Of a DNA stretch of 64,000 nucleotides, positions 8,613-63,359 are shown one piece after another. A program made the translations under genes and the position numbers. Position 1 is the stretch's first letter. Each line of letters begins with the position of its first letter. The stretch is from Pseudomonadota bacterium. GTDB taxonomy: Bacteria; Desulfobacterota; S145-22. The notes below the pieces were generated by a model that did not search any database, had not been told where the DNA came from, and was given only the letters and a program-made list of their open reading frames with translations. Location of the stretch: assembly GCA_015493505.1 (NCBI GenBank), contig WGDA01000005.1, positions 8,525 to 72,524 of the forward strand, read 5' to 3'.

Positions 8613-11132
8613 TTAAGCCATCACGTCTTTCAGGGTGTCGAGAATCTCTTTCGCTTTCTGGAAGTTTGGCCCCGCCCGAAGCCCACGTTCCCGGCGCTTC
8701 CTGGGGGTTTTCCCGCTTCCCTGAACCTCCTCGAAAATCCCGTCCTCGAGGGCAACACGCAGCCACCCCTGGAAGGTTGCCGAGGTCAGGGATTCCGGAC
8801 AATGGGCCTGGCCGGTTGAAAGCATCTCCTTCCCCCATCGAATCATCTCCTGAATCACTTTTCCCTCTTTGGCCTCCCTCCCTTCCATCTTTCTTACCGT
8901 GTAGGACACCCCAACCAGAAACCCTTCCAGGGCGCTCAGGGTTAAATGCCGGAGATCCCTTGCTTCGTCCTCGTCCAGCGTTTCGAGGCGCGTCTGCCCC
9001 AGGCGGTACCAGCGTCTGGGATGTTCCACCGGCAGGAGAAACTCGTACCGAAACAGGTGGAAAAGGAACGAGAAAGCCCTGTAAGGCGTCAGCGCGCCTC
9101 TGTTTCGTCCCGCCCGGGCCGCCCAGGCGTAGAGAGAGAGGGGCGCGAGGTGGGCGATCATCATGTTCTTGGAAAACTCGAGGTGAATCCGTTTTTCCGG
9201 CGGCACGAAATAAAAGGGGTCCGCTTCATCAACTTCCACCCCCTTCCGGATGATGCCATCCTGGGTAAAAAGGCCGAGTGACCGGAGGTAGGCCTCCCGC
9301 GCTTCTTCCGCCTTCACGGGGATGTCTGTTCCTATCTCCTCGAGGATACGCCTGTAGAGTTCGGCGGTCTTCACCACCTCGGACTGGCTGATTCCCCGGC
9401 CAACGCGCGAAAGCAGCGCCGCGGCCACGAGCGAGGAAGGGGTAACCGCCATGGCGCTCTGGATGGCACGGATTATGTCGTCCGCGACTTTCTGATACAG
9501 ATCCCGGCGGTGGACGACAGCTTCCGGCATGGCCGCCACGTTCTTTTCCTCCAGGTACCTTTTGAGGGAGATAGGAGCCCCAAACCGCACGAACACGGTT
9601 CCATACCGCTTTCGGAAAATCTTACGTATTCTGAGCAGATCCCGCTTCTTCTCCTTGCGCTTTTCTTCCCCTCGCAGTTCCCGGATATATCCCTCTTCCT
9701 CCACGATTCTTTCATAGGAAATCGCCGTTGGTACCACGTAGATGTCCTTCACCGATTCCTCGGCCAGCGCGCGAAAAATCATGGCGATCATCCCTTTTTT
9801 CGGCAGAATCAGTTTCCCCGTCCGGCTTCTCCCCCCCTCGATAAAAAACTCTATGGGAACCCCCTCCCGGATCAGTTCTCTCAGGTAGAGGTAGAACACC
9901 TCTCCATAGAGAAGGTTGTCCCTGAAGCTCCTTCGGATAAAAAAGGCGCTGGACCGCCTGAAAACCGGACCCACCGGCCAGAACGAGAGGTTGGTCCCCG
10001 CGGCCACCAGGGGCAACGGCAGGTTCATTTTGTAGAGCACGTAGGACAGCAGGAAATAATCGATGTGGCTCTTGTGAGAAGGGATATAGACGAGGGAATG
10101 GTTCCGCGCGATCCTTCGCAGCCGCTGCTGCATGGCTTCATTCACGTCAACCCCGTCGTACAGGTTCTGCCAGACCCACCGCAGGATTTTTTCCCAGACC
10201 TTCACGTAGGAAATGCGAAGGTCGGCGGCAATTTCCATGACATATCCCTTCACCTTTTTCGCCAGTTCCTCAACCGGCTTGCCCTCTTCAGCCGCCCGCT
10301 TCTCCAGGTAATCCCACAGGTCAGGCATCTCCAAAATCTGTGAGACCATGCGCCTTCGAGAGGGAAGGGGAGGGCCGGAGATGCCACGCAGCTTTTTATC
10401 CAGAATGGAGACGGCGGCCTGCCGCAGCTCCAGGGCAATCTCACTGTCCGACTTGCCGGGGTTCTGCTTTAAAACCCGCTGCACGTCGATGGGGGGTCCC
10501 AGGCGAACCTGTATTCTCTTTCTGAAAAGGACATTCTTGACCCGCAACGTCCATTTGGGGGTAGAGAATTTTCCCCAGAACGCCGTGTAGAGGGAGCGTT
10601 TCTCCGTCTGGGGAAGAACATCATGGATAACAAGGTGCGGGACGAGGTAAATGGGCAGCGAAGAGCTTCTTTGCGCCCGCACCACCGCTTTGAGCGGCGT
10701 GGTGCGAAAATTCAGGCATCGCTGGACATAGGCGTCAGCCGGGTTGATATACACAGTAAAGGGAACCCGTCCAAGGGTCGAAATATCCTCATTTTCGGCA
10801 AAGGGGTCGAAAAGGCATCTCCTCTTCACAATCCACAGGAGGTGCGCCTTCAGGTGTGCCAGCCATCCCCGGATGGATATCCACGGGAGCATGGATATCC
10901 CCAACGGAAACTTGGGGTAATTTCCCCCCTTCTGGCGATAGAGGTAGTAGAGCGCCAGGAAATCGATGCGGCTGGGGGAATCCAGCAGCGGGACGACCAC
11001 CCCCTTCGCCACGAGGGCGCGCCACTTCTTGAGGTGATCGGGTGAAATCTCCACGCGGGCGAAAAGCCCCGGGAACAAGCGCCGGGAGATCCACCCCTGC
11101 ATCAGGTCAAATCGATACGGTTTCAGTCCCAT
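8613..11132 (-). CDS. plsB: Glycerol-3-phosphate acyltransferase, PlsB type.
   Basis: It has the H(X)4D motif HKSHIDYFLLSY and a long colinear block matching E. coli PlsB (AGTNLSFWPVGPVFRRSSAFFIRRSF, FIEGGRSRTGKL). The track ORF start (11366) overlaps rsmE, so the start was moved to the ATG at 11132 (MGLKPYRFD). Confidence 0.85.
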   Translation of the reverse strand: MGLKPYRFDLMQGWISRRLFPGLFARVEISPDHLKKWRALVAKGVVVPLLDSPSRIDFLALYYLYRQKGGNYPKFPLGISMLPWISIRGWLAHLKAHLLWIVKRRCLFDPFAENEDISTLGRVPFTVYINPADAYVQRCLNFRTTPLKAVVRAQRSSSLPIYLVPHLVIHDVLPQTEKRSLYTAFWGKFSTPKWTLRVKNVLFRKRIQVRLGPPIDVQRVLKQNPGKSDSEIALELRQAAVSILDKKLRGISGPPLPSRRRMVSQILEMPDLWDYLEKRAAEEGKPVEELAKKVKGYVMEIAADLRISYVKVWEKILRWVWQNLYDGVDVNEAMQQRLRRIARNHSLVYIPSHKSHIDYFLLSYVLYKMNLPLPLVAAGTNLSFWPVGPVFRRSSAFFIRRSFRDNLLYGEVFYLYLRELIREGVPIEFFIEGGRSRTGKLILPKKGMIAMIFRALAEESVKDIYVVPTAISYERIVEEEGYIRELRGEEKRKEKKRDLLRIRKIFRKRYGTVFVRFGAPISLKRYLEEKNVAAMPEAVVHRRDLYQKVADDIIRAIQSAMAVTPSSLVAAALLSRVGRGISQSEVVKTAELYRRILEEIGTDIPVKAEEAREAYLRSLGLFTQDGIIRKGVEVDEADPFYFVPPEKRIHLEFSKNMMIAHLAPLSLYAWAARAGRNRGALTPYRAFSFLFHLFRYEFLLPVEHPRRWYRLGQTRLETLDEDEARDLRHLTLSALEGFLVGVSYTVRKMEGREAKEGKVIQEMIRWGKEMLSTGQAHCPESLTSATFQGWLRVALEDGIFEEVQGSGKTPRKRRERGLRAGPNFQKAKEILDTLKDVMA

Positions 11133-11137
11133 CTTCC

Positions 11138-11875
11138 CTATCCATCCCCAAGGACATACTGCAGGATCGATAATACCTTTATCACGGCTGTCTCCAAACG
11201 CAAGGTGCGGGCCCCGAGATGGCAGGGAACAAACCCCCGGGAACACGCCCGCTGAATCTCCGCAGGCGAGAATCCCCCCTCCGGACCGATCGCCACCGTT
11301 ACCCCCCGCGTCGCGTCTCCTTCGTTCAGGCATGCCTTCAGCCCCCGTTCCGCGTCCGGCGCGCACACGAGTTTCAGGGAGGCGTCATTCATCCCCAGTG
11401 CCTTGTCCAGGGGCGTAACCTCCAAAAGCTCAGGGATGGTGGAGCGGTAGGATTGTTTCGCTGCCTCCTTCAAAATCTGTTTCCACCGTTCCCGTTTGCG
11501 GGCCGCCCGCTCTCCCGAGAAGCGGGGAACGCTACGTTCGGAAACAACCGGAACGATCCGGCGCACCCCAAGCTCCGTGGCCTTCTGGAGAATCCATTCC
11601 CACTTCTTCCCCTTAGGCAACGCCTGGATCAAAGTCATCGCCAGCGGGGATTCGGCGGCCCTGGAAACGGGGCGCTCCAGGCGCGCCACGGTTCTGACGT
11701 CATCCGACTCTGCGATAACGGCGTGATACAGGGATTCACCATCGGAAACGAGAATCCGGTCCCCCGGCCTGAGCCGCAAGACCCGCCTCAAATGCGCGTG
11801 TTCCGCGCCCGCCACGACCGCCTCCGCCTTTTCCGCGTTCAGAGAGTCGGCAAAAAACTGGAAGGTTCGGCTCAC
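11138..11875 (-). CDS. rsmE: 16S rRNA (uracil1498-N3)-methyltransferase RsmE.
   Basis: It is an RsmE-family (SPOUT) sequence. The GTG start at 11875 overlaps the prmA stop (GTGA). Confidence 0.75.
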   Translation of the reverse strand: MSRTFQFFADSLNAEKAEAVVAGAEHAHLRRVLRLRPGDRILVSDGESLYHAVIAESDDVRTVARLERPVSRAAESPLAMTLIQALPKGKKWEWILQKATELGVRRIVPVVSERSVPRFSGERAARKRERWKQILKEAAKQSYRSTIPELLEVTPLDKALGMNDASLKLVCAPDAERGLKACLNEGDATRGVTVAIGPEGGFSPAEIQRACSRGFVPCHLGARTLRLETAVIKVLSILQYVLGDG

Positions 11876-51686: not shown

Positions 51687-52478
51687 ATGGCACACGCGTC
51701 CCCCATCCTGTTTGATACCCATGCTCACCTTGGGCTGGAGCACACGTACGATGTCGATCTCGAAGAGGTCATCCGACGTGCCCATGCGGCGGGCGTTCGG
51801 TATATCGCCACGGTGGGCATCGACGTAGCGGAGAGCCGAAAGGCCATTGAGATCGCCCAGTCACATGAAGACGTGTTTGCTGTCGTGGGTGTGCATCCTC
51901 ATGAGGCGAAAAGTGTCACCGGCAAAACACTGGAAACGATGGAGAGGCTGGCGCGGCGGGAAAAGGTGGTCGCCTATGGGGAAATAGGCCTTGATTTTTA
52001 TCGGAATCGTTCCCCGAAGGCCACCCAGATGACCGTCTTCCGGGAACAGATCCAGCTTGCCAAAAGCCTCCGGCTTCCCATCGTCATTCACGACAGGGAA
52101 GCCCATGCTGAGACCCTGAAAATCCTGAAAGAAGAAAAAGCGCAGGACGTGGGAGGTATTCTGCACTGCTTCAGCGGAGATGTCAGGATGGCATGGGAGT
52201 GTATTACCCTGGGATTTTTCATCTCCATCCCCGGGACCGTCACCTTCAAAAACGCCAGAATAATCCAGGAGGTCGTTTGTGAAATCCCCCTGGACTACTT
52301 GTTGACGGAAACGGACTGCCCCTTTCTGACACCCGTCCCCCACCGGGGAGAAAGAAACGAACCCGCTTATGTCCGGTATACGGCTGAGACCATTGCCAGA
52401 CTTAAGGCGATATCCTTTGAGACCGTGGCGGAGGCCACGACCCGGAACGCCCAAACGGTTTTCCGAATAGCCCCTTAA
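51687..52478 (+). CDS. tatD: TatD-family metal-dependent hydrolase (DNase).
   Basis: It has FDTHAHL and HxH motifs, is 263 aa and has the TatD pattern. Confidence 0.8.
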   Translation: MAHASPILFDTHAHLGLEHTYDVDLEEVIRRAHAAGVRYIATVGIDVAESRKAIEIAQSHEDVFAVVGVHPHEAKSVTGKTLETMERLARREKVVAYGEIGLDFYRNRSPKATQMTVFREQIQLAKSLRLPIVIHDREAHAETLKILKEEKAQDVGGILHCFSGDVRMAWECITLGFFISIPGTVTFKNARIIQEVVCEIPLDYLLTETDCPFLTPVPHRGERNEPAYVRYTAETIARLKAISFETVAEATTRNAQTVFRIAP

Positions 52479-52494
52479 ACAGAGGAAACGACCC

Positions 52495-53058
52495 ATGCCT
52501 TGCGCCTTTATCGTTGTCGATATGCTTGTGGGATCTTTCACGAATCCGGATGCCCCGCTGAGCCGGCAGGCGAAAAGGATTATACCCGTGATTCAGCAAA
52601 CCTTGCGAACCGCCCGTTCTGAAGGCGCTCCCGTCATTTATGCCTGTGACAGCTTCCTGTCCGGTGATTTTATCTTCAAAGGCCGGATGAGGGAACACGC
52701 CATCCGCGGAACGGAGGAAGTCCGCGTCATTTCGGAGCTCGCGCCGCAACCCGGTGACACCATTCTGGAAAAACGGCGATTCAGCGCCTTTTTCAAGACC
52801 GACCTGGATCAGACTCTCAGGCTGTGGGGCGTGGATACCGTTGCCGTCATGGGAGTCACTACCCACGTCTGCGTGTTGACGACCGCCTTGGATGCCATCG
52901 CCAACGATTTCGCCTGTATCATCATTGAGGACGGCTGTTGCTCCCACAAGGAAGAAATCCACCAGGGAGTTCTCAACGCCTACCGGCACTCCGCCCTCTA
53001 TCCCCTCCTACGAGTTTTGCCGGCGGGAGAGGCTTTAAAGGAATGTTTTCATGATTGA
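52495..53058 (+). CDS. Isochorismatase-family cysteine hydrolase.
   Basis: It has the isochorismatase fold with the catalytic Cys in GVTTHVCVLTTALDA. Confidence 0.7.
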   Translation: MPCAFIVVDMLVGSFTNPDAPLSRQAKRIIPVIQQTLRTARSEGAPVIYACDSFLSGDFIFKGRMREHAIRGTEEVRVISELAPQPGDTILEKRRFSAFFKTDLDQTLRLWGVDTVAVMGVTTHVCVLTTALDAIANDFACIIIEDGCCSHKEEIHQGVLNAYRHSALYPLLRVLPAGEALKECFHD

Positions 53059-53623
53059 ACAGGTCAAAAAAGCGATCGCGTCCCGCCCCAAACGCTATCT
53101 GCCGGTTGATGGCCTGAAGCCTGCCGCGGTAACGGTCCCCCTCTTTCTGAAGGGCGATGAATGGCATGTTCTCTTAACGCGCAGGACCCAGGAAGTGCGG
53201 CATCACAAGGGCGAAATCTCTTTCCCCGGCGGAGCGGTGGACCCACAAGACGCCTCCCTCCTGGAGACGGCCCTCCGTGAAACGGAGGAAGAGGTGGGTA
53301 TCCATAGAAAGGATGTAACCTTTCTTGGTGAGTTGAACGATATTCAGACCATGTCCCGTTTTCGGATCAGCCCCTTTGTTATTGTGTTTCCCTATCCTTA
53401 TCCTTTTCAGGTCTGCCGCGCCGAGATTGATGAGCTTCTCGAAATTCCCCTCGGGAGGCTTCAGCGCGACGCCAGACTGGAGGAAAAAACGGCGGAATAC
53501 GAGGGACTGCGTGCCAAGATTTATTTCTATTATTTTCGCGATGTCGTAATCTGGGGCGCCACGGCGAAAATTCTCAAGCAGTTGTTTGATCTCGTGGATT
53601 TTTCGCGGGACCTCCGTGAATGA
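53051..53623 (+). CDS. NUDIX hydrolase, CoA pyrophosphatase-like (NudL/YeaB type).
   Basis: It has the Nudix box GEISFPGGAVDPQDASLLETALRETEEEVG. Confidence 0.75.
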   Translation: MIEQVKKAIASRPKRYLPVDGLKPAAVTVPLFLKGDEWHVLLTRRTQEVRHHKGEISFPGGAVDPQDASLLETALRETEEEVGIHRKDVTFLGELNDIQTMSRFRISPFVIVFPYPYPFQVCRAEIDELLEIPLGRLQRDARLEEKTAEYEGLRAKIYFYYFRDVVIWGATAKILKQLFDLVDFSRDLRE

Positions 53624-53634
53624 AGTGATGGTTT

Positions 53635-53880
53635 GTGGCAATGAGAGAGTGGTTAAAAATCGCTTTTCGAAGGGATGTCTGCCTCAGAGGACTCAGGGTG
53701 GCAGGCGTGGTGGGAACGCTCTTGGTCATCATCAATCAGGGAGACCTGCTTTTCCATGGGCAATGGTCCATTCGGCAGGGGGTTAAAATCGTGTTGACCT
53801 ATTTCGTGCCCTACGGCGTTTCCACTTACGCGAGCGTTGCTTCCATCCGCAAGATGGAGAGAGAAGGGGGATCACGCTAA
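53635..53880 (+). CDS. NrtS-family small membrane protein.
   Basis: It is about 80 aa. The pattern LRVAGVVGTLLVIINQGD...KIVLTYFVPYGVSTYASV matches my recollection of the NrtS family. The start is ambiguous (GTG at 53635 or ATG at 53641). Confidence 0.45.
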   Translation: MAMREWLKIAFRRDVCLRGLRVAGVVGTLLVIINQGDLLFHGQWSIRQGVKIVLTYFVPYGVSTYASVASIRKMEREGGSR

Positions 53881-53925
53881 ACAACCATGAAGAAAAGGCG
53901 GAAGTTTAAAAATACCTTGTCAGAG

Positions 53926-53949
53926 TTGACATTTTGTGCTATTGCACAA
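53926..53949 (+). promoter_or_regulatory. TTGACA -35-like hexamer immediately followed by a perfect 16-bp palindrome, TTGTGCTATTGCACAA (53934..53949). It is a candidate operator or promoter for the decarboxylase-like operon.
   Basis: It was read directly. It is 28 bp upstream of the small-ORF ATG at 53978, which has the RBS GAGGAGG. Confidence 0.5.
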
Positions 53950-53977
53950 AACCGCCTGTAAGAGGAGGAAAAAGAAC

Positions 53978-54112
53978 ATGTATAACTGGGATCTGGCCTT
54001 CAAGGTTTTTTTCTACGGTTTTTCAGGGGTCTTCATCTGTCTGATCATCCTGATGTTTTTCGTTCAGATCAGCGGCATGGTCTTTAAAAACTTCAGAAAG
54101 AAAAAATCTTAG
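53978..54112 (+). CDS. Small single-TM membrane protein (44 aa). It is a candidate OadG-like gamma subunit of the Na+-translocating decarboxylase and is not in the supplied ORF track.
   Basis: The ATG at 53978 is preceded by a strong RBS AGAGGAGGAA. The product MYNWDLAFKVFFYGFSGVFICLIILMFFVQISGMVFKNFRKKKS is one hydrophobic helix plus a basic tail. The gene lies directly upstream of the beta-subunit gene, as oadG does. Confidence 0.5.
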   Translation: MYNWDLAFKVFFYGFSGVFICLIILMFFVQISGMVFKNFRKKKS

Positions 54113-54170
54113 GCCACTGGCGCTTCGTGGCCTGAGTTAACCCATCAGCCTTTTCTGCGAGGAGACGAAG

Positions 54171-55289
54171 ATGGACGCTTTTTCAATCCACACCCTGTTG
54201 CTGAAGACGGGAATCCTGCATCTCACTTATGGCCATGTCATCATGTGGGCGATTGGGTTTCTGTTTGTCTATCTCGGCATCAAAAAGAATTTCGAGCCGC
54301 TGCTCCTGGTTCCTATCGGGTTTGGCATCTTTATCGTAAACCTTCCCCTGGCCCCTCTGGCGGGAAAGGGAGACCTGATCTGGATATTTTATCATTACGG
54401 CCTGGAGTGGGAGGTCATCCCCCCGCTGATTTTCATGGGTGTCGGGGCGCTAACGGATTTTGGCCCCCTCATCGCGAACCCTAAGACCTTGTTGCTGGGT
54501 TCCGCCGCGCAGTTTGGGGTTTACGTGACCTTTTTCGGCGCCATCGCGCTGGGGTTCACCGTGAAGGAAGCCGCTTCCATCGGAATCATCGGGGGCGCCG
54601 ATGGGCCCACCTGCATCTATCTGACCGCCAAGCTTGCCCCTCGGCTGCTGGGCGCCAACGCCATTGCCGCTTACTCCTATATGGCCATGGTTCCTCTCAT
54701 TCAACCCCCTATCATGCGGCTGATGACGACCAAAAAAGAACGACAAATCGTGATGAAACAGCTCCGGCCAGTCTCCAAGCTGGAGAAAATCTTGTTTCCC
54801 ATGATCGCCACGCTGGTCATCTGCCTGCTCGTCCCGGAATCCGCCCCCCTCATGGCGATGCTTATGCTTGGGAACCTTTTCCGTGAGTGTGGTGTGGTTC
54901 AGCGCCTTTCTCACGCGGCGCAAAACGAGCTGCTCAACATCCTGACCATCTTTCTGGGAATTGCTGTCGGCACCACCATGCGGGCGGAGACCTTCCTGAA
55001 CCCCCAGCCGATTTTCATTTTCATCCTTGGCCTGTTCGCTTTCTCTTTCAGCACCGTGGGTGGCCTGTTGATGGCAAAATTCATGAACCTTTTTCTGAAG
55101 GACAAGATTAATCCCTTGATCGGTTCGGCGGGAGTGTCCGCCGTTCCAATGGCCGCCCGAGTGTCCCAGGTGGAAGGGCAAAGAGAGAACCCGAGAAACT
55201 TCCTCCTGATGCACGCGATGGGACCCAATGTGGCGGGTGTTATCGGAACAGCCACGGCGGCGGGGATGTTTCTGGCCCTTCTCAAATAA
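54171..55289 (+). CDS. oadB: Na+-translocating decarboxylase beta subunit (OadB/GcdB/MmdB family).
   Basis: It is 372 aa, polytopic, with the OadB-family sequence and the RBS GAGGAGA. Confidence 0.85.
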
Positions 55290-55362
55290 GACTTGACAAT
55301 GATAACGTTTACAAATAAAAGGGTGGTTGTGACCACCCTTTTATTGTAACAAGGAGGAGAAA

Positions 55363-56856
55363 ATGGAAGCGAAAAATCCGGTCAAGATTACGGATACCAC
55401 ATTACGGGATGGGCACCAGTCCATCTTCGCCACGCGCATGCGCACGGAAGACATGATCCCCATCGCGGAGAAAATCGACCAGATGGGATACCATTCTGTC
55501 GAGATGTGGGGTGGAGCCACGTTCGACGTCATGCACAGGTTTCTGGGGGAGGATCCGTGGGAACGGATTAGAACCCTGAGGAAACACATGCCCAATACCC
55601 CGTTCCAGATGCTTTTAAGGGGCCAAAATCTGGTGGGGTACCGGAACTATCCCGACGACGTCGTGGAGGCGTTCGTGCAGACGGCCTGCGACGTGGGGAT
55701 CGATATCTTTCGTGTCTTCGATTCCGTGAACGATGAACGCAATTTTGAAACCTGTTTCAGAGTCATCAAGAAGAATGGGAAACACATCCAGGGAACCGTC
55801 TGCTATTCCCTCACGGAAAGGCGGCTGGGGGGCCCTATCTATAACATTGACTATTTTGTAAACAAGGCCCTGAAGATTCAGGAGATGGGCGCGGACTCCA
55901 TCTGCATCAAGGACCAGGCGGGTTTGATCTCTCCCTATGACGCCTATGAACTAATCAAGGCCCTGAAGGAAAAGCTGGATGTTCCCGTGCAGTTGCATAC
56001 CCACTTCACCAGTGGCATGGGCGCCCTTTCGCTGCTGAAGGCGGTCGAGGCGGGTGTGGACGTCATCGACCTGGCCACGGCTCCCTTTGGGATGCGTACC
56101 TCTGAACCCGCCATGGAGCCTTTCATCGTGGCGCTTCAGGGAACGGGACGGGACCCGGGCCTCGATCTGAACAAAGTCTTCGAGATAGGGAATTATCTGG
56201 AAACCATTATTCCGAAATATAAGAGATTCGCGGATCAGACCCGGTTTTCTGTCATCGACACCACCGTTCTGGTTCATCAGATTCCTGGCGGCATGACAAC
56301 CAACCTTGTCAACCAGCTCAAGCAGGCGAAGGCGCTTCACCGACTTCCGGAGGTTCACAAGGAAGTCGCCCAGGTTCGGAGTGAGCTGGGATACCCTCCA
56401 CTTGTGACCCCATCCAGTCAACTGGTTGGCGCCCAGGCGGTTATGAACGTCCTGTTTGGACGCTATAAAATGATTACCAACCAGACGAAGGACTATGTCT
56501 TCGGACTGTACGGCAAGCCACCCGTCCCGGTGGATCCGGAGATACAGAAACTCGTTCTGAAAGGGTATCCCCGGGGAGAGACGCCCATCACCTGCCGGGC
56601 GGCGGACCTTCTGGAACCGGAGCTCGACAAGGCGAAGGAAGCCACGAAAGACCTGGCCAAGTCCCTCGAGGATGTCCTGATCTACGCCCTCTTCCCCACC
56701 ACTGGGTTACAGTTCCTGAAATGGAAGTATGGTGTTGAACCGATGCCCGACAGTGTCAAGCCCGTGACCCTGGAAGACGTCCAGAAGGAAGAGGAGCTGG
56801 TACGACTCGCGAGGGAAGGGAAACTCATCCGGAAAGAGGACTGCCCCAACGGGTAA
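55363..56856 (+). CDS. oadA: Oxaloacetate decarboxylase alpha / pyruvate carboxylase subunit B-type carboxyltransferase (5S-type TIM barrel). It lacks a C-terminal biotinyl (BCCP) domain.
   Basis: The N-terminus VKITDTTLRDGHQS is the HMGL-like carboxyltransferase signature. The protein is 497 aa and ends without an AMKM biotinylation motif. Confidence 0.8.
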   Translation: MEAKNPVKITDTTLRDGHQSIFATRMRTEDMIPIAEKIDQMGYHSVEMWGGATFDVMHRFLGEDPWERIRTLRKHMPNTPFQMLLRGQNLVGYRNYPDDVVEAFVQTACDVGIDIFRVFDSVNDERNFETCFRVIKKNGKHIQGTVCYSLTERRLGGPIYNIDYFVNKALKIQEMGADSICIKDQAGLISPYDAYELIKALKEKLDVPVQLHTHFTSGMGALSLLKAVEAGVDVIDLATAPFGMRTSEPAMEPFIVALQGTGRDPGLDLNKVFEIGNYLETIIPKYKRFADQTRFSVIDTTVLVHQIPGGMTTNLVNQLKQAKALHRLPEVHKEVAQVRSELGYPPLVTPSSQLVGAQAVMNVLFGRYKMITNQTKDYVFGLYGKPPVPVDPEIQKLVLKGYPRGETPITCRAADLLEPELDKAKEATKDLAKSLEDVLIYALFPTTGLQFLKWKYGVEPMPDSVKPVTLEDVQKEEELVRLAREGKLIRKEDCPNG

Positions 56857-56870
56857 GGGCCACCAACAAG

Positions 56871-56928
56871 CCGGGGAAAGGACAGGCGCGAGCCTTTGGG
56901 GTTTAGTGTGTTTAGTGTCCTTCCCCGG
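56871..56928 (+). terminator. Long imperfect stem-loop (CCGGGGAAAGGACA ... TGTCCTTCCCCGG) after the carboxyltransferase gene. It is a possible terminator or processing site and contains a GTTTAGTGT x2 direct repeat.
   Basis: It was read directly. There is no clear U-tract. Confidence 0.3.
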
Positions 56929-57018
56929 CACACCAGACCAGATTACTTGAAAAAACCACTCAAAAAGGCTACATTGGAAATGTGTATCTGCATCTAATCG
57001 TGGCGGGAGGAGATTACA

Positions 57019-60000
57019 ATGATTTCCATCGGAATTGATATTGGGTCTGTGAGTACGGATGTCGTTGTAATTGATGACCAGGGAAAGATCCTGGACGATC
57101 GATATATCCGTAATTTCGGGAAACCACTTCAGGCAACGCTGGACACCCTGTCAGAGTTGCTCGAGACATACGGGCCGGAGAACATCGAACGCGTAAGTTT
57201 CACCGGCACGGGTGGCAAGCTGGTGGCCCGTCTGAGCAAGGGGTTTTTCGTCAACGAAATCATCGCCCAGGCCAAGGCGGTTACCACCCTTTACCCGCAG
57301 GCGCGAACCATCATGGACATCGGAGGGGAGGACTCAAAGCTCATTCACCTGGAAGAAGAAAACGGAGTCGTCAAGATTCGTGATTTTTCCATGAATACCC
57401 TCTGTGCCGCGGGAACAGGCTCTTTTCTCGATCAACAGGCCACCCGCCTGGGATACAAGATTGAAGACCTGGGCGAGATCGCGCTTCAGTCGGAAAATCC
57501 CCCCCGCATCGCGGGACGATGCAGCGTGTTCGCCAAATCGGACATGATACACCTCCAGCAGATCGCCACGCCAGACAAAGACATCCTCGCGGGCCTCTGT
57601 TACGCCCTCGCGAGAAACTTCAAGAGCAGCATCGGCAAGGGAGAAGAATTCGTCCGTCCCATCGTGTTTCAGGGCGGTGTCGCGGCCAATCCCGCCATGC
57701 GGAAGGCCTTTCTGGATGTCCTGGAACTCGAAGACAATGAACTGATTATTCCGGAGCATTTCACCGCCATGGGTGCCATTGGTGCCGTCTTCCAGGCCCG
57801 GCAGGAGGGGGTCACAACCGGCGCCCCGGACCTGGAAGCCATCCGCGCGTATATTTCCCAGAGTGAACGCGAGGACAACCCTCTTAAACCTCTTTCCCTC
57901 TCCTCTCTTCACACAAAACAGGAATCCTCCCCAAAACCCTCTCTGGGTAAAAAGAAAATCCGTGGTTATCTCGGACTCGACGTGGGCTCCATCAGCACCA
58001 ACCTGGTGGTGCTCGATGAGAACCTGAACCTGATTACCAAACGATACCTAATGACCGCCGGGAAACCCATCGACGCCGTCCGAACCGGCCTGAAATCCAT
58101 TGGGGAAGAACTGGGTGACCGGGTCGAAATCATCGGAGCCGCCACAACCGGTTCCGGCCGGTACCTGACAGGTGATTACGTGGGAGCGGACGTGGTCCGG
58201 AACGAAATTACCGCCCAGGCGACGGCGGCCATCCATATCGATCCGGAGGTGGACACTGTCTTCGAGATTGGTGGGCAGGACTCCAAATACATCAGCATCG
58301 ATGATGGTGTGGTGGTCGATTTTGAGATGAACAAGTCATGCGCCGCAGGCACCGGCTCCTTCCTGGAAGAGCAGGCGGAACGACTGGGAATCTCCATCAA
58401 GAAGGAGTTCAGCGAGCTGGCCCTCTCGGCGAAAAGGCCCGTCAGGATGGGAGAACGTTGTACGGTCTTCATCGGTTCCGACCTGGTGCATCACCAGCAG
58501 CAGGGCGCGCAAACGGACGACCTGGTGGCGGGACTTTCCTATTCCATCGTCCTGAACTACCTGAACCGGGTGGTTGGTGACCGGAGAATCGGCAAGAAAA
58601 TCTTTTTTCAGGGGGGAACGGCCTTCAACAAAGGGGTCGTGGCGGCCTTTGAAAAGATTGTGGGACAGCCCATCGTGGTTCCACCCAACCATGATGTCAC
58701 GGGAGCCATCGGTGCCGCCATCCTCGCGAAGGAGTACAAGGATCAGCACCCGGGCCCCTCAAATTTCAAGGGATTCGACCTGTCTGAACGCTCTTACACC
58801 ATCAAGACCTTCGAATGTAAGGGGTGCGACAACCGATGCCTCATCCGGCAGGTCAGCATCGAGAACGAACAGCCGCTCTTCTACGGCAGCCGGTGTGAAA
58901 AGTATGATGTGGTCAAGAAAAAGAAACGGGTGGATTTGCCCAACCTGTTTGACGAGCGGGAGACGCTTCTCCTGAACGCCTACGACGGAGACCCGGAAGA
59001 TCCAACGGACCCGAAGGTCATTGGAATCCCCCGCCTGCTTTATTTCAATGAATACTTTCCCTTCTGGCTCACCTTTTTCAAGGCCTTGGGATATACCCCC
59101 ATGATTTCGGCCCCCACACGCCGCGAACTGATACGCAAGGGCGTGGAAGCCGTAGTGGCCGAAACCTGTTTTCCCGTCAAAGTGGCCCATGGGCATGTGA
59201 TCGACCTGTTGGAAAAGGGTGTGGCCAACCTCTTCCTGCCAAGCGTGATCGATCAGCCCCCGCTGGTTAAAGACGCCGTTAACAGCTTCAACTGCCCCTA
59301 TTCCCAGACCATTCCCTACACCTTTCCCTCCGCCATCAACTTTTCCAAATATCACACCCGGGTCTTGAGCCCCATTATCCGTTTCGGGCAGGGAGAGAAG
59401 GTGCTGAAGGAGGATATGGAAGCGCTTGGGAAGATGTTTGGCATTCCAAAAATCAAGGTCTTTGAAGCCTTTGTAAAGGCATGGGACACCCAGCAGGATT
59501 TCTACGCCAAACTCAAGAAACGGGGAAGGGAAGTCCTGAAACAGTTACGGGAAAAGGACGACCTGGGAATCGTGATTGTGGGACGCCCTTACAACACATG
59601 CGACAGCGGCGTAAATCTGAATATCCCCAAAAAACTTCTGGATCTGGGGGTCCTGCCCATCCCCATGGATTTTCTCGATCTGGAAGACCTCGAATCGTCT
59701 GAGGGAATCCGGGACATCTACTGGAAGTACGGACAGAAAATCCTTGCCACGGCCAAGAAGCTGAAAGGGCGGGATAACCTGTTCGCCCTCTATATCACGA
59801 ATTTTGGCTGCGGGCCGGACTCTTTCATTTCTCATTTTTTCAGGGAGATGAGCAAGGGAAGCCCCTATCTCCAGCTTGAAATTGACGAACACAGCGCGGA
59901 CGCCGGCGCCATCACCCGGTGTGAGGCCTTTTTGGACAGCCTCAGAAACGTGAGAAAGCGCCGGGCGGCCATGAAGCCCGTCCAGTCTGAAACGCCTCAT

Positions 60001-61233
60001 GTGAAAAGGTCCGTGCCCCGCCTGGCCGACCGGGTCATTTATATCCCCCACATGGCTGACCATGCGTACGCCTTTGCGGCGGCTTTCCATGCGTGTGGAC
60101 TCCAGGCGGACGTCTTCCCCGAATCGACCGAGGAGACCCTGGAGTATGGAAGAAAGTATACCACGGGGAAGGAATGTTTCCCCTGTATCGTGACGACGGG
60201 AGACCTCATCCGCATCACCAAGATGCCAGGGTTCGACCCCAAAAAGGTCGCCATTTTCTTCCCTTCCGGATCCGGACCCTGCCGGTATGGCCAGTATCAC
60301 CGCTTTCACCGCCTGCTGCTGGATCAGTTGGGACACAAGGACATCCCCATTTTTGCCCCTGAGCAGGATGAATCCCTGTACGAAGACGTCTCCGCGCTCG
60401 GAAAGAAATTCCGAAGGCTGGGGTGGCAGGGAATCGTGGCCGTGGACCTCCTTTACAAGATGCTCCATGAAACCAGGCCCTACGAAGTGGTCAAGGGTTC
60501 CACGGACGCGGTCTATAAACGCTGCCTGGAAAAGATCTGTGATGACATCCGGAATGAGCGGAACCTGATTGACACGTTTGATGCCATTATCAGCGAATTC
60601 CGGACCATCGAGGTGGACCGCTCCGAGAAGAAACCCCTCATTGGGATCGTGGGGGAAATCTTCGTTCGCCTCAACCGCTTCAGCAACGAGGATGTGATCC
60701 GAAAGGTTGAAGACCTGGGAGGGGAGGTTTGGCTCGCCCCCCTGTCTGAGTGGATATACTATACCAACTTCACGGCCCGGATGAGAAATACCATCAAAAA
60801 GAAGTGGCTGAGCAACCTGAAACTGTCGATTGTGGAGCATTTTCAGAAGAAGGATGAGAAGATGCTCATGAATTTCCTTTCCCGTTACCTGAGAAATTCC
60901 CACGAGCCGGAAACGGAGGAGATTATCGAAAAGGCCTCCGCCTATCTTCACCCAAGTTTCGAGGGCGAGGCGATTTTAAGTGTTGGGAAGGCCATCGACC
61001 TGAAGGATAAAGGGGCGAGCGGGGTCATCAACATCATGCCATTCACCTGTATGCCGGGGACCATTGTCAGCGCCATTCTCAAGCGGTTCAGGGAGGAAAA
61101 TCAGCACTTTCCCATTCTGAACATGGCGTATGACGGGCAGGAACAGACCAACACCATGACCCGATTGGAGGCCTTCATGCATCAGGTGAAGGAATTTCAG
61201 AAACAGACAATCCGTCAATCGCAGGAAAGGTGA
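57019..61233 (+). CDS. Large fusion protein of unknown function. It has two BadF/BadG/BcrA/BcrD-type ATPase (activase) repeats, a Cys4 motif, and two 2-hydroxyacyl-CoA dehydratase (HgdA/HgdB, BcrB/BcrC)-like domains.
   Basis: It is 1404 aa with the RBS GGGAGGAG. The ATPase repeats run aa 1-255 and about aa 316-570, each with DxGSxST, CAAGTG and RCxVFxxSD motifs. CKGCDNRC...C lies at aa 600-626. Dehydratase-family blocks are NFGCGPDSF...EIDEH, GSGPCRYGQY and MPFTCMPG. Confidence 0.85.
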   Translation: MISIGIDIGSVSTDVVVIDDQGKILDDRYIRNFGKPLQATLDTLSELLETYGPENIERVSFTGTGGKLVARLSKGFFVNEIIAQAKAVTTLYPQARTIMDIGGEDSKLIHLEEENGVVKIRDFSMNTLCAAGTGSFLDQQATRLGYKIEDLGEIALQSENPPRIAGRCSVFAKSDMIHLQQIATPDKDILAGLCYALARNFKSSIGKGEEFVRPIVFQGGVAANPAMRKAFLDVLELEDNELIIPEHFTAMGAIGAVFQARQEGVTTGAPDLEAIRAYISQSEREDNPLKPLSLSSLHTKQESSPKPSLGKKKIRGYLGLDVGSISTNLVVLDENLNLITKRYLMTAGKPIDAVRTGLKSIGEELGDRVEIIGAATTGSGRYLTGDYVGADVVRNEITAQATAAIHIDPEVDTVFEIGGQDSKYISIDDGVVVDFEMNKSCAAGTGSFLEEQAERLGISIKKEFSELALSAKRPVRMGERCTVFIGSDLVHHQQQGAQTDDLVAGLSYSIVLNYLNRVVGDRRIGKKIFFQGGTAFNKGVVAAFEKIVGQPIVVPPNHDVTGAIGAAILAKEYKDQHPGPSNFKGFDLSERSYTIKTFECKGCDNRCLIRQVSIENEQPLFYGSRCEKYDVVKKKKRVDLPNLFDERETLLLNAYDGDPEDPTDPKVIGIPRLLYFNEYFPFWLTFFKALGYTPMISAPTRRELIRKGVEAVVAETCFPVKVAHGHVIDLLEKGVANLFLPSVIDQPPLVKDAVNSFNCPYSQTIPYTFPSAINFSKYHTRVLSPIIRFGQGEKVLKEDMEALGKMFGIPKIKVFEAFVKAWDTQQDFYAKLKKRGREVLKQLREKDDLGIVIVGRPYNTCDSGVNLNIPKKLLDLGVLPIPMDFLDLEDLESSEGIRDIYWKYGQKILATAKKLKGRDNLFALYITNFGCGPDSFISHFFREMSKGSPYLQLEIDEHSADAGAITRCEAFLDSLRNVRKRRAAMKPVQSETPHVKRSVPRLADRVIYIPHMADHAYAFAAAFHACGLQADVFPESTEETLEYGRKYTTGKECFPCIVTTGDLIRITKMPGFDPKKVAIFFPSGSGPCRYGQYHRFHRLLLDQLGHKDIPIFAPEQDESLYEDVSALGKKFRRLGWQGIVAVDLLYKMLHETRPYEVVKGSTDAVYKRCLEKICDDIRNERNLIDTFDAIISEFRTIEVDRSEKKPLIGIVGEIFVRLNRFSNEDVIRKVEDLGGEVWLAPLSEWIYYTNFTARMRNTIKKKWLSNLKLSIVEHFQKKDEKMLMNFLSRYLRNSHEPETEEIIEKASAYLHPSFEGEAILSVGKAIDLKDKGASGVINIMPFTCMPGTIVSAILKRFREENQHFPILNMAYDGQEQTNTMTRLEAFMHQVKEFQKQTIRQSQER

Positions 61234-61238
61234 ACTGT

Positions 61239-63359
61239 ATGACAAAAAAAATCGCGTTGGTTCTATGTGTCATCCTGGTGGGGTCTTTCGTTACCGGTTG
61301 TGGGGAATCTTTAATGTTCTGGAAAAAGAAGAAAGAGATTGAGGTCAGCCACCAGAAGCTGCCCCCCTTCAAAACCCTCTTCGAACGAACAGTCGAGATG
61401 TACAATTCCAAGCAGTACAAAGACGCCATCAACTCCTTTCTCTTCCTTCGCGAAAACTATCCTCAAGAGACGGCCTACCAGTCCCGCATCACCCTCTATC
61501 TGGCAGACAGCCATTTCCACCAGAAGGAATACCCGGAAGCCATCGCGAACTATCGGGAATTTATCAAACTTTACCCGACAAGCCCGGATGTTCCCTATGC
61601 CTATTTTCAGATTGGAATGTGTAACTACAAAGAGCGGCGAACCTATGATCGCGATGCCACCTTTGTCCGCAAGGCGATTGAGAATTTCAAGAAGGTGCTC
61701 CAGATCGCCCCGCCCGGCGTGCTGGTCAATGAGTCCATCCGCATGATCGCCCTGTGTCAGCGGGAGCTGGCACTCCATGACCTGTTTATCGCGGATTTTT
61801 ACATGCGGACCCACCACTACAAATCCGCTATTTTCAGGTACGAAGACGTGCTCCATTCCTTCCCCGATTTCAAAATCTATGACAGGGCCCACTTGGGGAT
61901 TGGAAAGGCCTACCTGAAGTTGAAAAAGCGGAATGAGGCCTTTCGCCACCTCAGCTATGTGGCTAAAAATTATCCGAACACCCCTTACGGGAAAGAGGCC
62001 TGGAAACTGCTCCAGAAGGATTTCAAGGTGGCATCTCGTGATCAGTTGCCCGATGTGACCTTCCCTATGGCAAACGTGGCCTCTGCTACGCCGCCGGCAC
62101 CAGCCACAAAACCAGTACCGTCTCCAGCGCCCGAAAAGGCAACCGCCTCGACAAAAACAGCCGGGGGAAAACAGGTAAAAACAAACGCGCCGGCCTCCAC
62201 CACACCTCCCGCCAAGGTCGCCAAAAAACCCGCGCCCGAACCGAAACCGCATACCTATTTCCCGAAAATCACCAAGGTTCAGGAAAAACCTGCTGTTTCC
62301 TCTCCACCCGTCAAGACGGTAAAATCTTCCGAACCGCAAACGAAAGTCGTCAAGACCACGCCGCAGGCGAAGGAGCAGACGCGCAACGGAACCACGTCAA
62401 AAGCCGCGCCGGCACCCAAAACTCCCCCCGTGTCGCCTCCCCTTAAACACGTAAAAAAACCCACTCCGGCGCCTCCCGCGCCGCAACATGTGGCGACCGC
62501 TTCAACGTCTCCCACGCCCCCTACGCCTCACAAAACCGTAACGGCCAAAAAGGTTGCCGTGAAAAAACCCAGCCAACCAAAGCCCGTTAGCGCGGTCCCA
62601 GCCTCTCCAAAGACTCAAGAAACACCCGTGCCCCAAAAGCCCTCCGAGGAAAAGGCAGCGCCTCAAAAACCTGTCCAGGCACCTGCCGCTTCCATGGCCT
62701 CGAAACCCGCTTCACCTGCCCCGCCACCCAAAAAAGCGGCGCAGAAGGCGGCTCCGCCCGCTACCGCCGTTCAAAAGTCTCAACCGCCTACTGGGAAGGC
62801 GACGCCTTCACCGGCTGTAAAGAAGGCTGAAAAAACCCCTTCAAATGTCAAAAAAATGGTGAAGACCGACACCCTGCCTCCCAAAAAGGTGAAACAACCC
62901 TCTTCAGGCCTGGTTGGCGCGCTCGACACCCGAAAACCCATTCATATCACAGCAGACCACGTGGAATCCCAGCAGGGGAAAAATTCCGTTCGGTTCTATG
63001 GGCGGGTTGTGGCGAAGCAGAAAGACGTGACCCTCAAATGCGATGATCTCACGGCGTTTTATACCTCCGGAGGCAAGGCCATCGATAAAATCGTGGCTCA
63101 TGGCCATGTCGTCATCACCCAGCTCAACAAGAAGGTCAAGTGTGGAAAGGCGATATTTTACAACGCCGCGCGAAAGATTATCCTGGAAGACTCCCCCATC
63201 GCCTGGGATGGCAACAACCGCATCAGCGGAAGCAAGATGGTGCTCCTTCTCGACAAGAACGAAATTCAGATTCTCGGGTCAAAAAAGAAGCCCACGGAGC
63301 TTGTAATCTATCCGAATCAAAAACCGGGGTTACTGAAGAGTCCAGCTCAGTCGAAGTAA
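61239..63359 (+). CDS. bamD: Lipoprotein fusing a BamD-like (YfiO) TPR domain to an LptA/OstA-N-like domain through a long Pro/Ala/Lys-rich linker.
   Basis: It has a signal peptide with the lipobox VTGC. The BamD-like TPR region runs to about aa 260 (YKDAINSFLFL..., EYPEAIANYREFI..., YKSAIFRYEDVL...). An approximately 250-aa low-complexity PAK-rich segment follows. The C-terminal LptA-like domain reads PIHITADHVE...GNNRISGSKMVLLLDKNEIQILG. Confidence 0.65.
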   Translation: MTKKIALVLCVILVGSFVTGCGESLMFWKKKKEIEVSHQKLPPFKTLFERTVEMYNSKQYKDAINSFLFLRENYPQETAYQSRITLYLADSHFHQKEYPEAIANYREFIKLYPTSPDVPYAYFQIGMCNYKERRTYDRDATFVRKAIENFKKVLQIAPPGVLVNESIRMIALCQRELALHDLFIADFYMRTHHYKSAIFRYEDVLHSFPDFKIYDRAHLGIGKAYLKLKKRNEAFRHLSYVAKNYPNTPYGKEAWKLLQKDFKVASRDQLPDVTFPMANVASATPPAPATKPVPSPAPEKATASTKTAGGKQVKTNAPASTTPPAKVAKKPAPEPKPHTYFPKITKVQEKPAVSSPPVKTVKSSEPQTKVVKTTPQAKEQTRNGTTSKAAPAPKTPPVSPPLKHVKKPTPAPPAPQHVATASTSPTPPTPHKTVTAKKVAVKKPSQPKPVSAVPASPKTQETPVPQKPSEEKAAPQKPVQAPAASMASKPASPAPPPKKAAQKAAPPATAVQKSQPPTGKATPSPAVKKAEKTPSNVKKMVKTDTLPPKKVKQPSSGLVGALDTRKPIHITADHVESQQGKNSVRFYGRVVAKQKDVTLKCDDLTAFYTSGGKAIDKIVAHGHVVITQLNKKVKCGKAIFYNAARKIILEDSPIAWDGNNRISGSKMVLLLDKNEIQILGSKKKPTELVIYPNQKPGLLKSPAQSK

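Follow-up and report, generated by a model that had tools for sequence, protein, structure and literature searches.

The gene analyzed in this study is located at positions 57019-61233 on the forward strand of a 64,000-nucleotide stretch of contig WGDA01000005.1, which as a whole is called the window. The closest described systems are the bacterial ether-lipid enzymes PlsA and Ger. The plsA and plsR genes of C. perfringens (CPE1194/1195) encode an anaerobic plasmalogen synthase (PMC12838417; PMC9702350). In E. faecalis, L. cremoris, and B. longum, PlsA is encoded by one open reading frame (ORF) of 4248-4920 bp with the modules Act1-Act2-Red1-Red2, and each of these fused single-gene forms yields plasmalogens in E. 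coli (PMC12838417). Listeria monocytogenes is also a plasmalogen producer (PMC9702350). Ger (glycerol ester reductase) has been described as a "modified PlsA"; when expressed in E. coli under anoxia, Tmari_0479 of T. maritima produced 1-O-alkyl glycerol ethers, and Ger of D. alkenivorans (SHJ90043) produced both 1-O-alkyl and dialkyl glycerol ethers (PMC13159169, PMC11150832). The taxa carrying the modified plsA are reported to make alkyl ethers and not plasmalogens, and they belong to the same phyla as the clade of the window protein (PMC8788747). A first-pass annotation, made from the sequence of the window, had described the gene product as a fused radical enzyme of unknown function. Our analysis placed the gene as an uncharacterized newcomer in a family that is widespread and already has an assigned function, rather than as one for an enzyme without known function. 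It probably encodes an oxygen-sensitive, ATP-dependent Fe-S enzyme of the PlsA/Ger family that converts a phospholipid acyl ester to an ether.

The ORF was intact and uninterrupted and encodes a protein of 1404 aa (157.2 kDa); a GGAGGAG ribosome-binding site is located approximately 6 nt 5' of the ATG. The single uninterrupted 1404-aa reading frame of the first-pass annotation was thus borne out. A contig identical to the window, including an identical 1404-aa protein, is present in the metagenome-assembled genome (MAG) GCA_027055435.1, and no second copy of the gene was found within the 64-kb window. The Pfam layout of the protein (PF01869 twice, PF09989, and PF06050) was identical to that of E. 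faecalis PlsA, which has been designated "architecture 1" (PF01869 + PF01869 + PF09989 + PF06050; supplement of bioRxiv 10.1101/2022.04.21.487849; PMC13159169). On the basis of its sequence, the complete ORF was assigned as a putative fused ATP-dependent glycerolipid ester reductase of the PlsA/Ger family. Hidden Markov model searches and structure prediction, which had been proposed earlier as a check of a four-domain layout, confirmed the four modules; the invariant four-Cys linker is a fifth element. All features of the protein described below are on the forward strand.

The two tandem BadF/BadG/BcrA/BcrD-type ATPase repeats noticed previously were confirmed by Pfam, in which BcrAD_BadFG matched twice (2e-83). 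The best stretch comprised aa 318-570, and the first copy (approximately aa 2-257) was placed through matches to the NCBIfam benzoyl-CoA reductase D/Q models. The first ATPase half of this ASKHA type, Act1 (aa 2-257; 57022..57789), carries the motifs GIDIGS, GGEDSK, and GGVAAN together with C129 and C168. It matched BcrD/BzdQ-like models (1e-37 to 3e-39), and its match by sequence in the PDB was MbdP (9gai_C, 2.9e-22). The second half, Act2 (aa 318-570; 57970..58728), carries GLDVGS, GGQDSK, and GGTAFN together with C441 and C481; it matched HadI (4eht, 3.8e-32) and also MbdQ (9gai), HgdC (1hux), and DCCP-R (7yyl_E). The PDB search placed C441 and C481 in alignment with the CAAGTG and CTVF motifs of activators such as HadI. 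When the entire 1404-aa protein was searched against the PDB by sequence, the matches were confined to this ATPase part. In NCBIfam, the only domain model that matched was the generic "acyl-CoA dehydratase activase," which did so twice, and the benz_CoA_red equivalog models scored far under their cut-offs (186 vs 578 and 129 vs 313). The earlier reading of the protein as one of unknown function probably arose because NCBIfam contains no PlsA- or Ger-specific model.

We then considered the conservation of cysteines in an alignment of 51 homologues extending down to approximately 32% identity. Fourteen Cys residues were invariant, namely the four of the ATPase halves, four in the linker, and six in the catalytic half (C717, C759, C931, C1053, C1088, and C1344). 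The activase pairs C129/C168 and C441/C481 were found where the first-pass annotation had placed them and in the same motif contexts. Its CxxCxxxC...C motif at aa 600-626 was likewise present, as C600-x2-C603-x3-C607-x18-C626 (58816..58896). The four-Cys linker motif is also kept in the PlsA proteins of Listeria, Collinsella, and Fusobacterium, and its region appeared as low-confidence beta-strands in the AlphaFold2 model. This linker may bind an additional metal, as a relay [4Fe-4S] cluster or as a structural Zn site.

The catalytic half follows the linker and consists of two modules. Red1 (approximately aa 668-975; 59020..59943) includes the Pfam domain DUF2229 (PF09989; aa 668-885, 6.2e-66, profile positions 2-217 of 218) and the invariant C717, C759, and C931. 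Red2, the equivalent of PlsR (approximately aa 1005-1395; 60031..61203), contains the invariant C1053, C1088, and C1344 and exhibited a weak HGD-D match, a 59-residue stretch (aa 1329-1387) whose 28.4 bits are exactly the gathering threshold. Red1 and Red2 were mutually homologous (hhalign probability 95-97.5%, E 2e-11 to 7e-8), and their three-Cys sites aligned pairwise (C717 with C1053, C759 with C1088, and C931 with C1344). The layout is the alpha/beta arrangement of 2-hydroxyacyl-CoA dehydratase (HAD), in which each half has its own three-Cys site.

An AlphaFold2 model of aa 580-1404 (pLDDT 71, pTM 0.65) was compared with known structures by using Foldseek. The best matches were DCCP (7yyl, 6eno), BzdN/O (8s02), HadB/C (3o3m/n), and MbdO/N (9g87), with E values of 7e-6 to 9e-4 and a probability of 1.0. 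A sequence profile of the catalytic half, built from 40 diverse homologues, was searched against the PDB and matched no chain of HAD, benzoyl-CoA reductase (BCR), or DCCP. Because this search returned no relevant match, the link of the catalytic half to the HAD, BCR, and DCCP proteins is one of predicted structure, and both halves are predicted to share their fold. These results bear on two statements of the first-pass annotation. The motif blocks that it had likened to HgdA/HgdB or BcrB/BcrC (CGPD...EIDEH, GPCRYGQY, and MPFTCMPG) are all present, hold three of the six invariant Cys of the catalytic half, and lie in a region whose predicted fold matches subunits of HAD, BCR, and DCCP. The broader relationship of the C-terminal 800 aa to HgdAB/BcrBC stood in terms of predicted fold, whereas the sequence likeness was marginal, with HGD-D at its threshold. 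The view of the protein as a single chain comprising a pseudo-heterodimeric activase and a pseudo-heterodimeric catalytic module is supported by the Cys pairs, the homology of Red1 and Red2, and the fold. We judged the general enzyme logic proposed earlier, an ATP-dependent activase tethered to its catalytic module, to be right.

To compare the protein with named PlsA sequences, we used Listeria, Collinsella, and Fusobacterium references taken from PLSDB, in which Paraclostridium was also found. The window protein was collinear over its full length with WP_014600632 of Listeria monocytogenes (1475 aa; 100% coverage, 27.5% identity, E 9e-149) and with the protein of Collinsella aerofaciens (1479 aa; 99% coverage). 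The gene of Collinsella aerofaciens adjoins a TetR regulator, as in E. faecalis. In Fusobacterium animalis, the gene is split into 975 and 404 aa in the manner of PlsA/PlsR; the window protein covered these at 96-99%, and Red2 was collinear with the separate 404-aa gene. All 14 invariant Cys were common to the window protein and the PlsA proteins of Listeria, Collinsella, and Fusobacterium. In comparison with PlsA of E. faecalis (EF1327/Q835P9), L. cremoris, and B. longum, the window protein was alike in module order (Act1-Act2-Cys motif-Red1-Red2), in size (1404 aa vs 1415-1475 aa), and in being encoded by a stand-alone gene. Unlike those proteins, it falls in another clade, composed mostly of diderm and deep-branching anaerobes, its gene adjoins no TetR-type regulator, and its product may be a saturated alkyl ether. 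The C. perfringens PlsA-PlsR operon (CPE1194/1195; Q8XL48/Q8XL47) contains the same modules, with PlsR corresponding to Red2 (approximately aa 1005-1404), but the window protein joins both in one polypeptide. The likeness to Ger (AGL49404, SHJ90043), drawn from architecture and taxa, comprises the fused BBD(+H) architecture, a similar size (approximately 157 kDa vs 159 kDa for Ger and 153 kDa for Ger2), and occurrence in an anaerobe; the clade of the window protein includes Thermotogaceae, Thermodesulfatator, anammox, and Desulfobacterota MAGs, which are Ger-type taxa. The first-pass annotation had stated that no fused member of this kind had an assigned substrate. That statement is out of date, given that PlsA and Ger make ether lipids in E. 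coli.

Within the family, the PlsA-clade references shared 34-45% identity among themselves and no more than 31% with any protein of the window clade. The motifs near the cluster Cys (equivalents of aa 925-965, 1048-1096, and 1336-1352) differed sharply between the clades. The window clade has NFGCGPDSF...EIDEHSADAG, GPCR(F/Y)GQY, and PFTCMPGT, whereas the PlsA clade of Listeria, Collinsella, and Fusobacterium has SFGCGxDA...KIDExxNLG, GGGCRxxNY, and PF(A/G)CLPNH. As judged from these comparisons, the window protein is clearly a family member outside the PlsA clade of Firmicutes, Actinobacteria, and Fusobacteria. The clade-specific motifs near the Red1 and Red2 clusters could serve as discriminators between alkyl-ether (Ger) and vinyl-ether (PlsA) chemistry. 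The family motifs had no match in a full-text literature search.

The fused form is the norm for the PlsA/Ger family. At least 8000 homologues (90%-identity clusters, E <= 1e-10) were identified; among the 120 clusters listed, the proteins were approximately 1400 aa in length and, if named, were named "CoA activase." When searched alone, the catalytic half matched 5274 clusters at 50% identity, 1105 of them at <= 1e-30, and these proteins were mostly 1350-1450 aa long. The homologues were full-length and not fragments, and the fusion thus survived the possibility, raised in the first-pass annotation, that close orthologues are split pseudogenes. A pseudogene or gene fragment was rejected on the ground that full-length homologues are widespread. 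A scan of species-representative genomes yielded at least 597 relatives, the best 80 of which belonged to Thermodesulfobacteriota, Nitrospirota, Planctomycetota (including Ca. Scalindua), Thermodesulfatator, Thermotogaceae, Bacteroidota, Armatimonadota, Actinomycetota, Chloroflexota, and others. The nearest relatives (78-88% identity, followed by 61-63%) came from MAGs that carry the labels Syntrophaceae or Thermodesulfobacteriota. Members of the window clade, which spans Thermodesulfobacteriota, Nitrospirota, anammox Planctomycetota, Thermodesulfatator, and a Thermotogaceae MAG, shared 44-62% identity. Relatives at 46-53% identity came from Ca. Scalindua, a Thermodesulfatator MAG, a Thermotogaceae MAG, and MAGs labelled Desulfobacteraceae or Desulfarculaceae, and a Brocadiia (anammox) representative was approximately 42% identical over the catalytic half. 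The neighbor-joining tree was star-like and served for coarse grouping only; the ORFs picked for it from loci L039 and L080 were spurious and are to be disregarded.

From the module layout, the Cys ligands, the fold, and the full-length homology to PlsA, we infer the cofactors, electron path, substrate, and product as follows, with the steps drawn by analogy with the HAD, BCR, and DCCP systems and from the published PlsA and Ger proposals. Act1 and Act2 would fold as an intramolecular pseudo-dimer holding one putative [4Fe-4S] cluster between C129/C168 and C441/C481. A ferredoxin- or flavodoxin-like low-potential donor would reduce this cluster, and ATP binding and hydrolysis would drive the electron into the tethered three-Cys [4Fe-4S] sites of Red1 and Red2, as in HgdC/HadI, BCR, and DCCP-R, possibly by way of the C600/603/607/626 site. 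At Red1/Red2, single electrons would reduce the sn-1 ester carbonyl stepwise to an intermediate at the hemiacetal level, the dehydration of which would give a 1-alkenyl (vinyl) ether. In a Ger-type enzyme, a further reduction would lead to a saturated 1-O-alkyl ether. By analogy with the described enzymes, the target would probably be the sn-1 acyl ester of assembled membrane phospholipids and, for Ger, also the sn-2 ester. The first-pass annotation had hinted at an acyl-CoA or 2-oxo-acid substrate; the substrates of PlsA and Ger are membrane glycerophospholipid esters (PMC12838417, PMC13159169, PMC11150832).

The protein differs in several respects from other enzymes built from the same modules. 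In the HAD systems (HadBC-HadI, HgdAB-HgdC), the modules are separate subunits, whereas they are fused in the window protein. The HAD activator is a homodimer, in contrast to the pseudo-heterodimeric activase with two differing ATPase halves observed here, and the window protein has the four-Cys motif in addition. The HAD substrate is a CoA thioester, whereas that proposed for the window protein is a membrane lipid ester. The window contained neither a CoA-transferase gene nor one for a 2-hydroxyacid dehydrogenase, and none was conserved across 83 loci of the family. Class I BCRs (BcrABCD, BzdNOPQ, MbdONQP) comprise four subunits and not a single chain, and their identity to the window protein in the catalytic part was 11-15%; the window locus contained no aromatic-degradation gene context. 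Membership in the HAD or BCR families was rejected on the basis of the single ORF, the equivalog scores under the cut-offs, and the lack of a matching gene context.

Several observations weigh against the assignment to an ether-lipid enzyme and, in particular, against its Ger-type form. The activities of Ger and PlsA are at present not separable from sequence (PMC13274423). A close paralogue, Ger2 of D. alkenivorans (SHK01260), produced no ether lipids in E. coli, a result that the authors ascribed to inclusion bodies or expression problems (PMC11150832), and the homologues of T. geofontis and Kuenenia were also negative in E. coli (supplement of bioRxiv 10.1101/2022.04.21.487849). Because of these three negatives, membership in the window clade is no guarantee of activity. 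The identity of 27-28% to the PlsA-clade references establishes family membership and not orthology. The homologue sets did not include the T. maritima, D. alkenivorans, E. faecalis, and C. perfringens sequences, and orthology to Ger is deduced from the matching of taxa, with Listeria PlsA as a proxy. The 1404-aa protein has no predicted transmembrane helix that would bring it to membrane lipids. The source organism is uncultured, and its ether lipids are presumptive.

The alternatives differ mainly in the product and the substrate. A canonical PlsA-type plasmalogen synthase would follow the same chemistry as far as the dehydration and release an sn-1 vinyl ether with no further reduction. The Pfam architecture shared with E. 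faecalis PlsA, the 14 Cys shared with the Listeria, Collinsella, and Fusobacterium proteins, and the inseparability of the two activities by sequence are all consistent with this product; however, the low identity to PlsA-clade references that are themselves more alike, the substitution of GPCRYGQY, EIDEHSADAG, and PFTCMPGT for GGGCRxxNY, KIDExxNLG, and PF(A/G)CLPNH, and the reports of alkyl ethers and not plasmalogens from the phyla of this clade (PMC8788747) make it possible but not the expectation. Because the taxa of the window clade are those of the described Ger-type genes and not those of the Firmicutes/Actinobacteria PlsA clade, we lean modestly to a Ger-type alkyl ether over a vinyl ether as the product.

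A greater departure from the PlsA/Ger assignment is that the protein is a Ger2-like or diverged paralogue in which ATP-driven electron injection acts on another carbonyl or ester, such as an acyl-CoA or a 2-oxo or 2-hydroxy acid derivative, possibly tied to the neighbouring Na+-translocating decarboxylase, as the first-pass annotation had suggested. The failure of Ger2 and the two other homologues to give ether lipids in E. coli would fit this explanation, as would a 3-hydroxyacyl-CoA dehydrogenase gene located 5.4 kb upstream and the oxaloacetate decarboxylase (OAD) beta gene, which lies within three genes of the fused homologue in 5 of the 83 loci (the window, L002, L004, L020, and L029). 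Nevertheless, OAD is absent from the other 78 loci, its side and distance vary in the five, a hairpin and a promoter-like site separate it from the fused gene in the window, the neighbourhood has no conserved gene for a CoA-transferase, a 2-hydroxyacid dehydrogenase, or aromatic degradation, and the Ger2 result has been put down to inclusion bodies or expression problems (PMC11150832). We consider such a paralogue unlikely. A narrower form of the idea, in which the enzyme of this Syntrophia-like Thermodesulfobacteriota lineage is Ger2-like, makes no ether lipid, and is tied to its recurrent Na+-decarboxylase neighbours, appears quite improbable. In a milder variant, the clade-specific motifs near the Red1 and Red2 clusters would be what determines, at the sequence level, whether an alkyl or a vinyl ether is made. 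The protein could also be compared with the double-cubane cluster protein (DCCP/DCCP-R) system of Carboxydothermus hydrogenoformans (6eno/7yyl), because DCCP was the best structural match of the catalytic half and DCCP-R matched the ATPase part. In DCCP, the double cubane is reportedly held by six Cys of one subunit of approximately 420 aa, whereas the six invariant Cys of the window protein are split 3+3 between two aligned homologous halves, as in the alpha and beta subunits of HAD. The window protein is also fused and would act on another substrate class, the fold scores of HadB/C, BzdN/O, and MbdO/N essentially equalled that of DCCP, and the sequence identity to DCCP was 12-16%. A double cubane of the DCCP type was rejected on the basis of the split ligands, and a fused [8Fe-9S] reductase acting on small molecules (acetylene or hydrazine-like compounds) is very improbable indeed.

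If the assignment to the PlsA/Ger family of ether-lipid enzymes is true, one more uncultured lineage of Thermodesulfobacteriota joins the likely producers of non-isoprenoid ether lipids, which is a result of modest weight. Such lipids bear on the "lipid divide," on the biomarkers of sulfate-reducing and syntrophic bacteria, and on the debated sources of branched glycerol dialkyl glycerol tetraethers. Annotation pipelines still name the PlsA/Ger family "acyl-CoA dehydratase activase." The novelty that remains concerns where the window protein belongs among Ger, Ger2, and PlsA, as well as the motifs near the catalytic clusters that are specific to its clade.

The gene neighbourhood was analyzed by clustering all neighbouring ORFs across the 83 loci. 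No conserved partner gene was found across these loci. The comparative search for conserved neighbours that the first-pass annotation had recommended thus returned none, and the absence of a partner fits a family in which one gene suffices for ether-lipid synthesis in E. coli. The window itself is ordinary chromosomal DNA with genes for ATP synthase, a tRNA synthetase, recA, RNase Y, and an ABC transporter. A gene set resembling a Na+-translocating OAD (53635-56856, forward strand) precedes the fused gene and includes OAD-beta (54171-55289, forward strand) and an OAD-alpha-type carboxyltransferase of 497 aa (55363-56856, forward strand) with HMGL-like and PYC_OADA domains. No biotinyl-domain match was reported for the OAD-alpha-type protein, and no biotin carrier was found among the neighbouring genes scanned near the set. 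Small unannotated ORFs (60-81 aa and 44 aa) precede the OAD genes.

A 162-nt spacer containing a hairpin and a promoter-like site lies between the OAD-alpha gene and the fused ORF. The hairpin is a long, nearly perfect stem-loop (56870..56929, forward strand; -36.9 kcal/mol, z = -2.9) with no U tract and may act as a terminator or insulator. The promoter-like site, a consensus match only, is of the sigma-70 type (TTGAAA-17 nt-TACATT; 56947..56975, forward strand) and lies 44 nt 5' of the start codon; promoter-like matches in the region were no more numerous than in shuffled sequence. The five loci with OAD-beta near the homologue all belong to one Thermodesulfobacteriota lineage. OAD-beta is upstream of the fused gene in the window and L002 and downstream in L004, L029, and L020, and it is not near the homologue in L003 (62% identical) or in any other phylum examined. 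The proximity of OAD therefore resembles synteny that drifts within a lineage, not an operon or functional unit. An operon with the OAD genes was rejected in view of the five loci out of 83, the changing sides, and the hairpin and promoter-like site between the genes; the hint to function that the first-pass annotation had drawn from the Na+-pumping decarboxylase-like operon is, on the same evidence, not supported. A trio of TatD, isochorismatase, and NUDIX genes occurs near the fused gene in both L003 (14613-16815) and the window (51687-53623) but on opposite sides, which indicates that the neighbourhood is rearranged lineage synteny.

Downstream, a gene on the forward strand (61239-63359) begins 5 nt downstream of the fused gene's stop codon and encodes a BamD/YfiO-TPR and LptA/LptD_N (OstA) fusion of approximately 706-709 aa. 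The combination of BamD/YfiO-TPR with LptD_N, in which the lipoprotein domain is N-terminal, is unusual for a protein of outer-membrane biogenesis. This downstream fusion is kept in L002 (78% identical) and not more widely. A PlsB-type glycerol-3-phosphate acyltransferase of 916 aa (8613-11366, reverse strand; Acyltransferase and GPAT_C domains) is encoded approximately 46 kb away from the fused gene; it bears on phospholipid assembly but is not linked to that gene.

Other neighbours recur in parts of the family and are not shared with the window. A protein of approximately 300 aa with an N-terminal 4Fe-4S dicluster (Fer4) is encoded directly upstream on the same strand in L032, L037, L043, L051, and L056, which are labelled Bacteroidales, Rikenellaceae, or unnamed. 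This Fer4 protein is a candidate for a dedicated electron donor to the activase in that lineage. A radical-SAM protein of approximately 310-335 aa is encoded one to three genes upstream in L009-L012, L049, and L055 and also in L045, L061, and L082, and directly upstream in four loci; the labels of the radical-SAM loci are delta proteobacterium, Desulfobaccales, Desulfarculaceae, and Desulfobacteraceae. Membrane-spanning lipid synthases (Mss) are also radical-SAM enzymes, and the neighbour is much shorter than these.

Two observations concern the plasmid collection PLSDB. A plasmid-borne paralogue of 1282 aa is encoded on plasmid pHD0315_2-2 of Paraclostridium bifermentans (L086, 3001-6849). 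It has neither the four-Cys linker motif nor any of the three Cys of Red2, and its gene adjoins those of an ABC transporter and a Crp/Fnr regulator; this family member has probably diverged in function or degenerated. The entries NZ_CP030101.1, NZ_CP154629.1, and NZ_CP084075.1 (Listeria, Acetoanaerobium, and Fusobacterium; 2-2.9 Mb) are labelled as plasmids and are evidently chromosomes, a mislabelling that is a caveat for plasmid statistics drawn from that collection.

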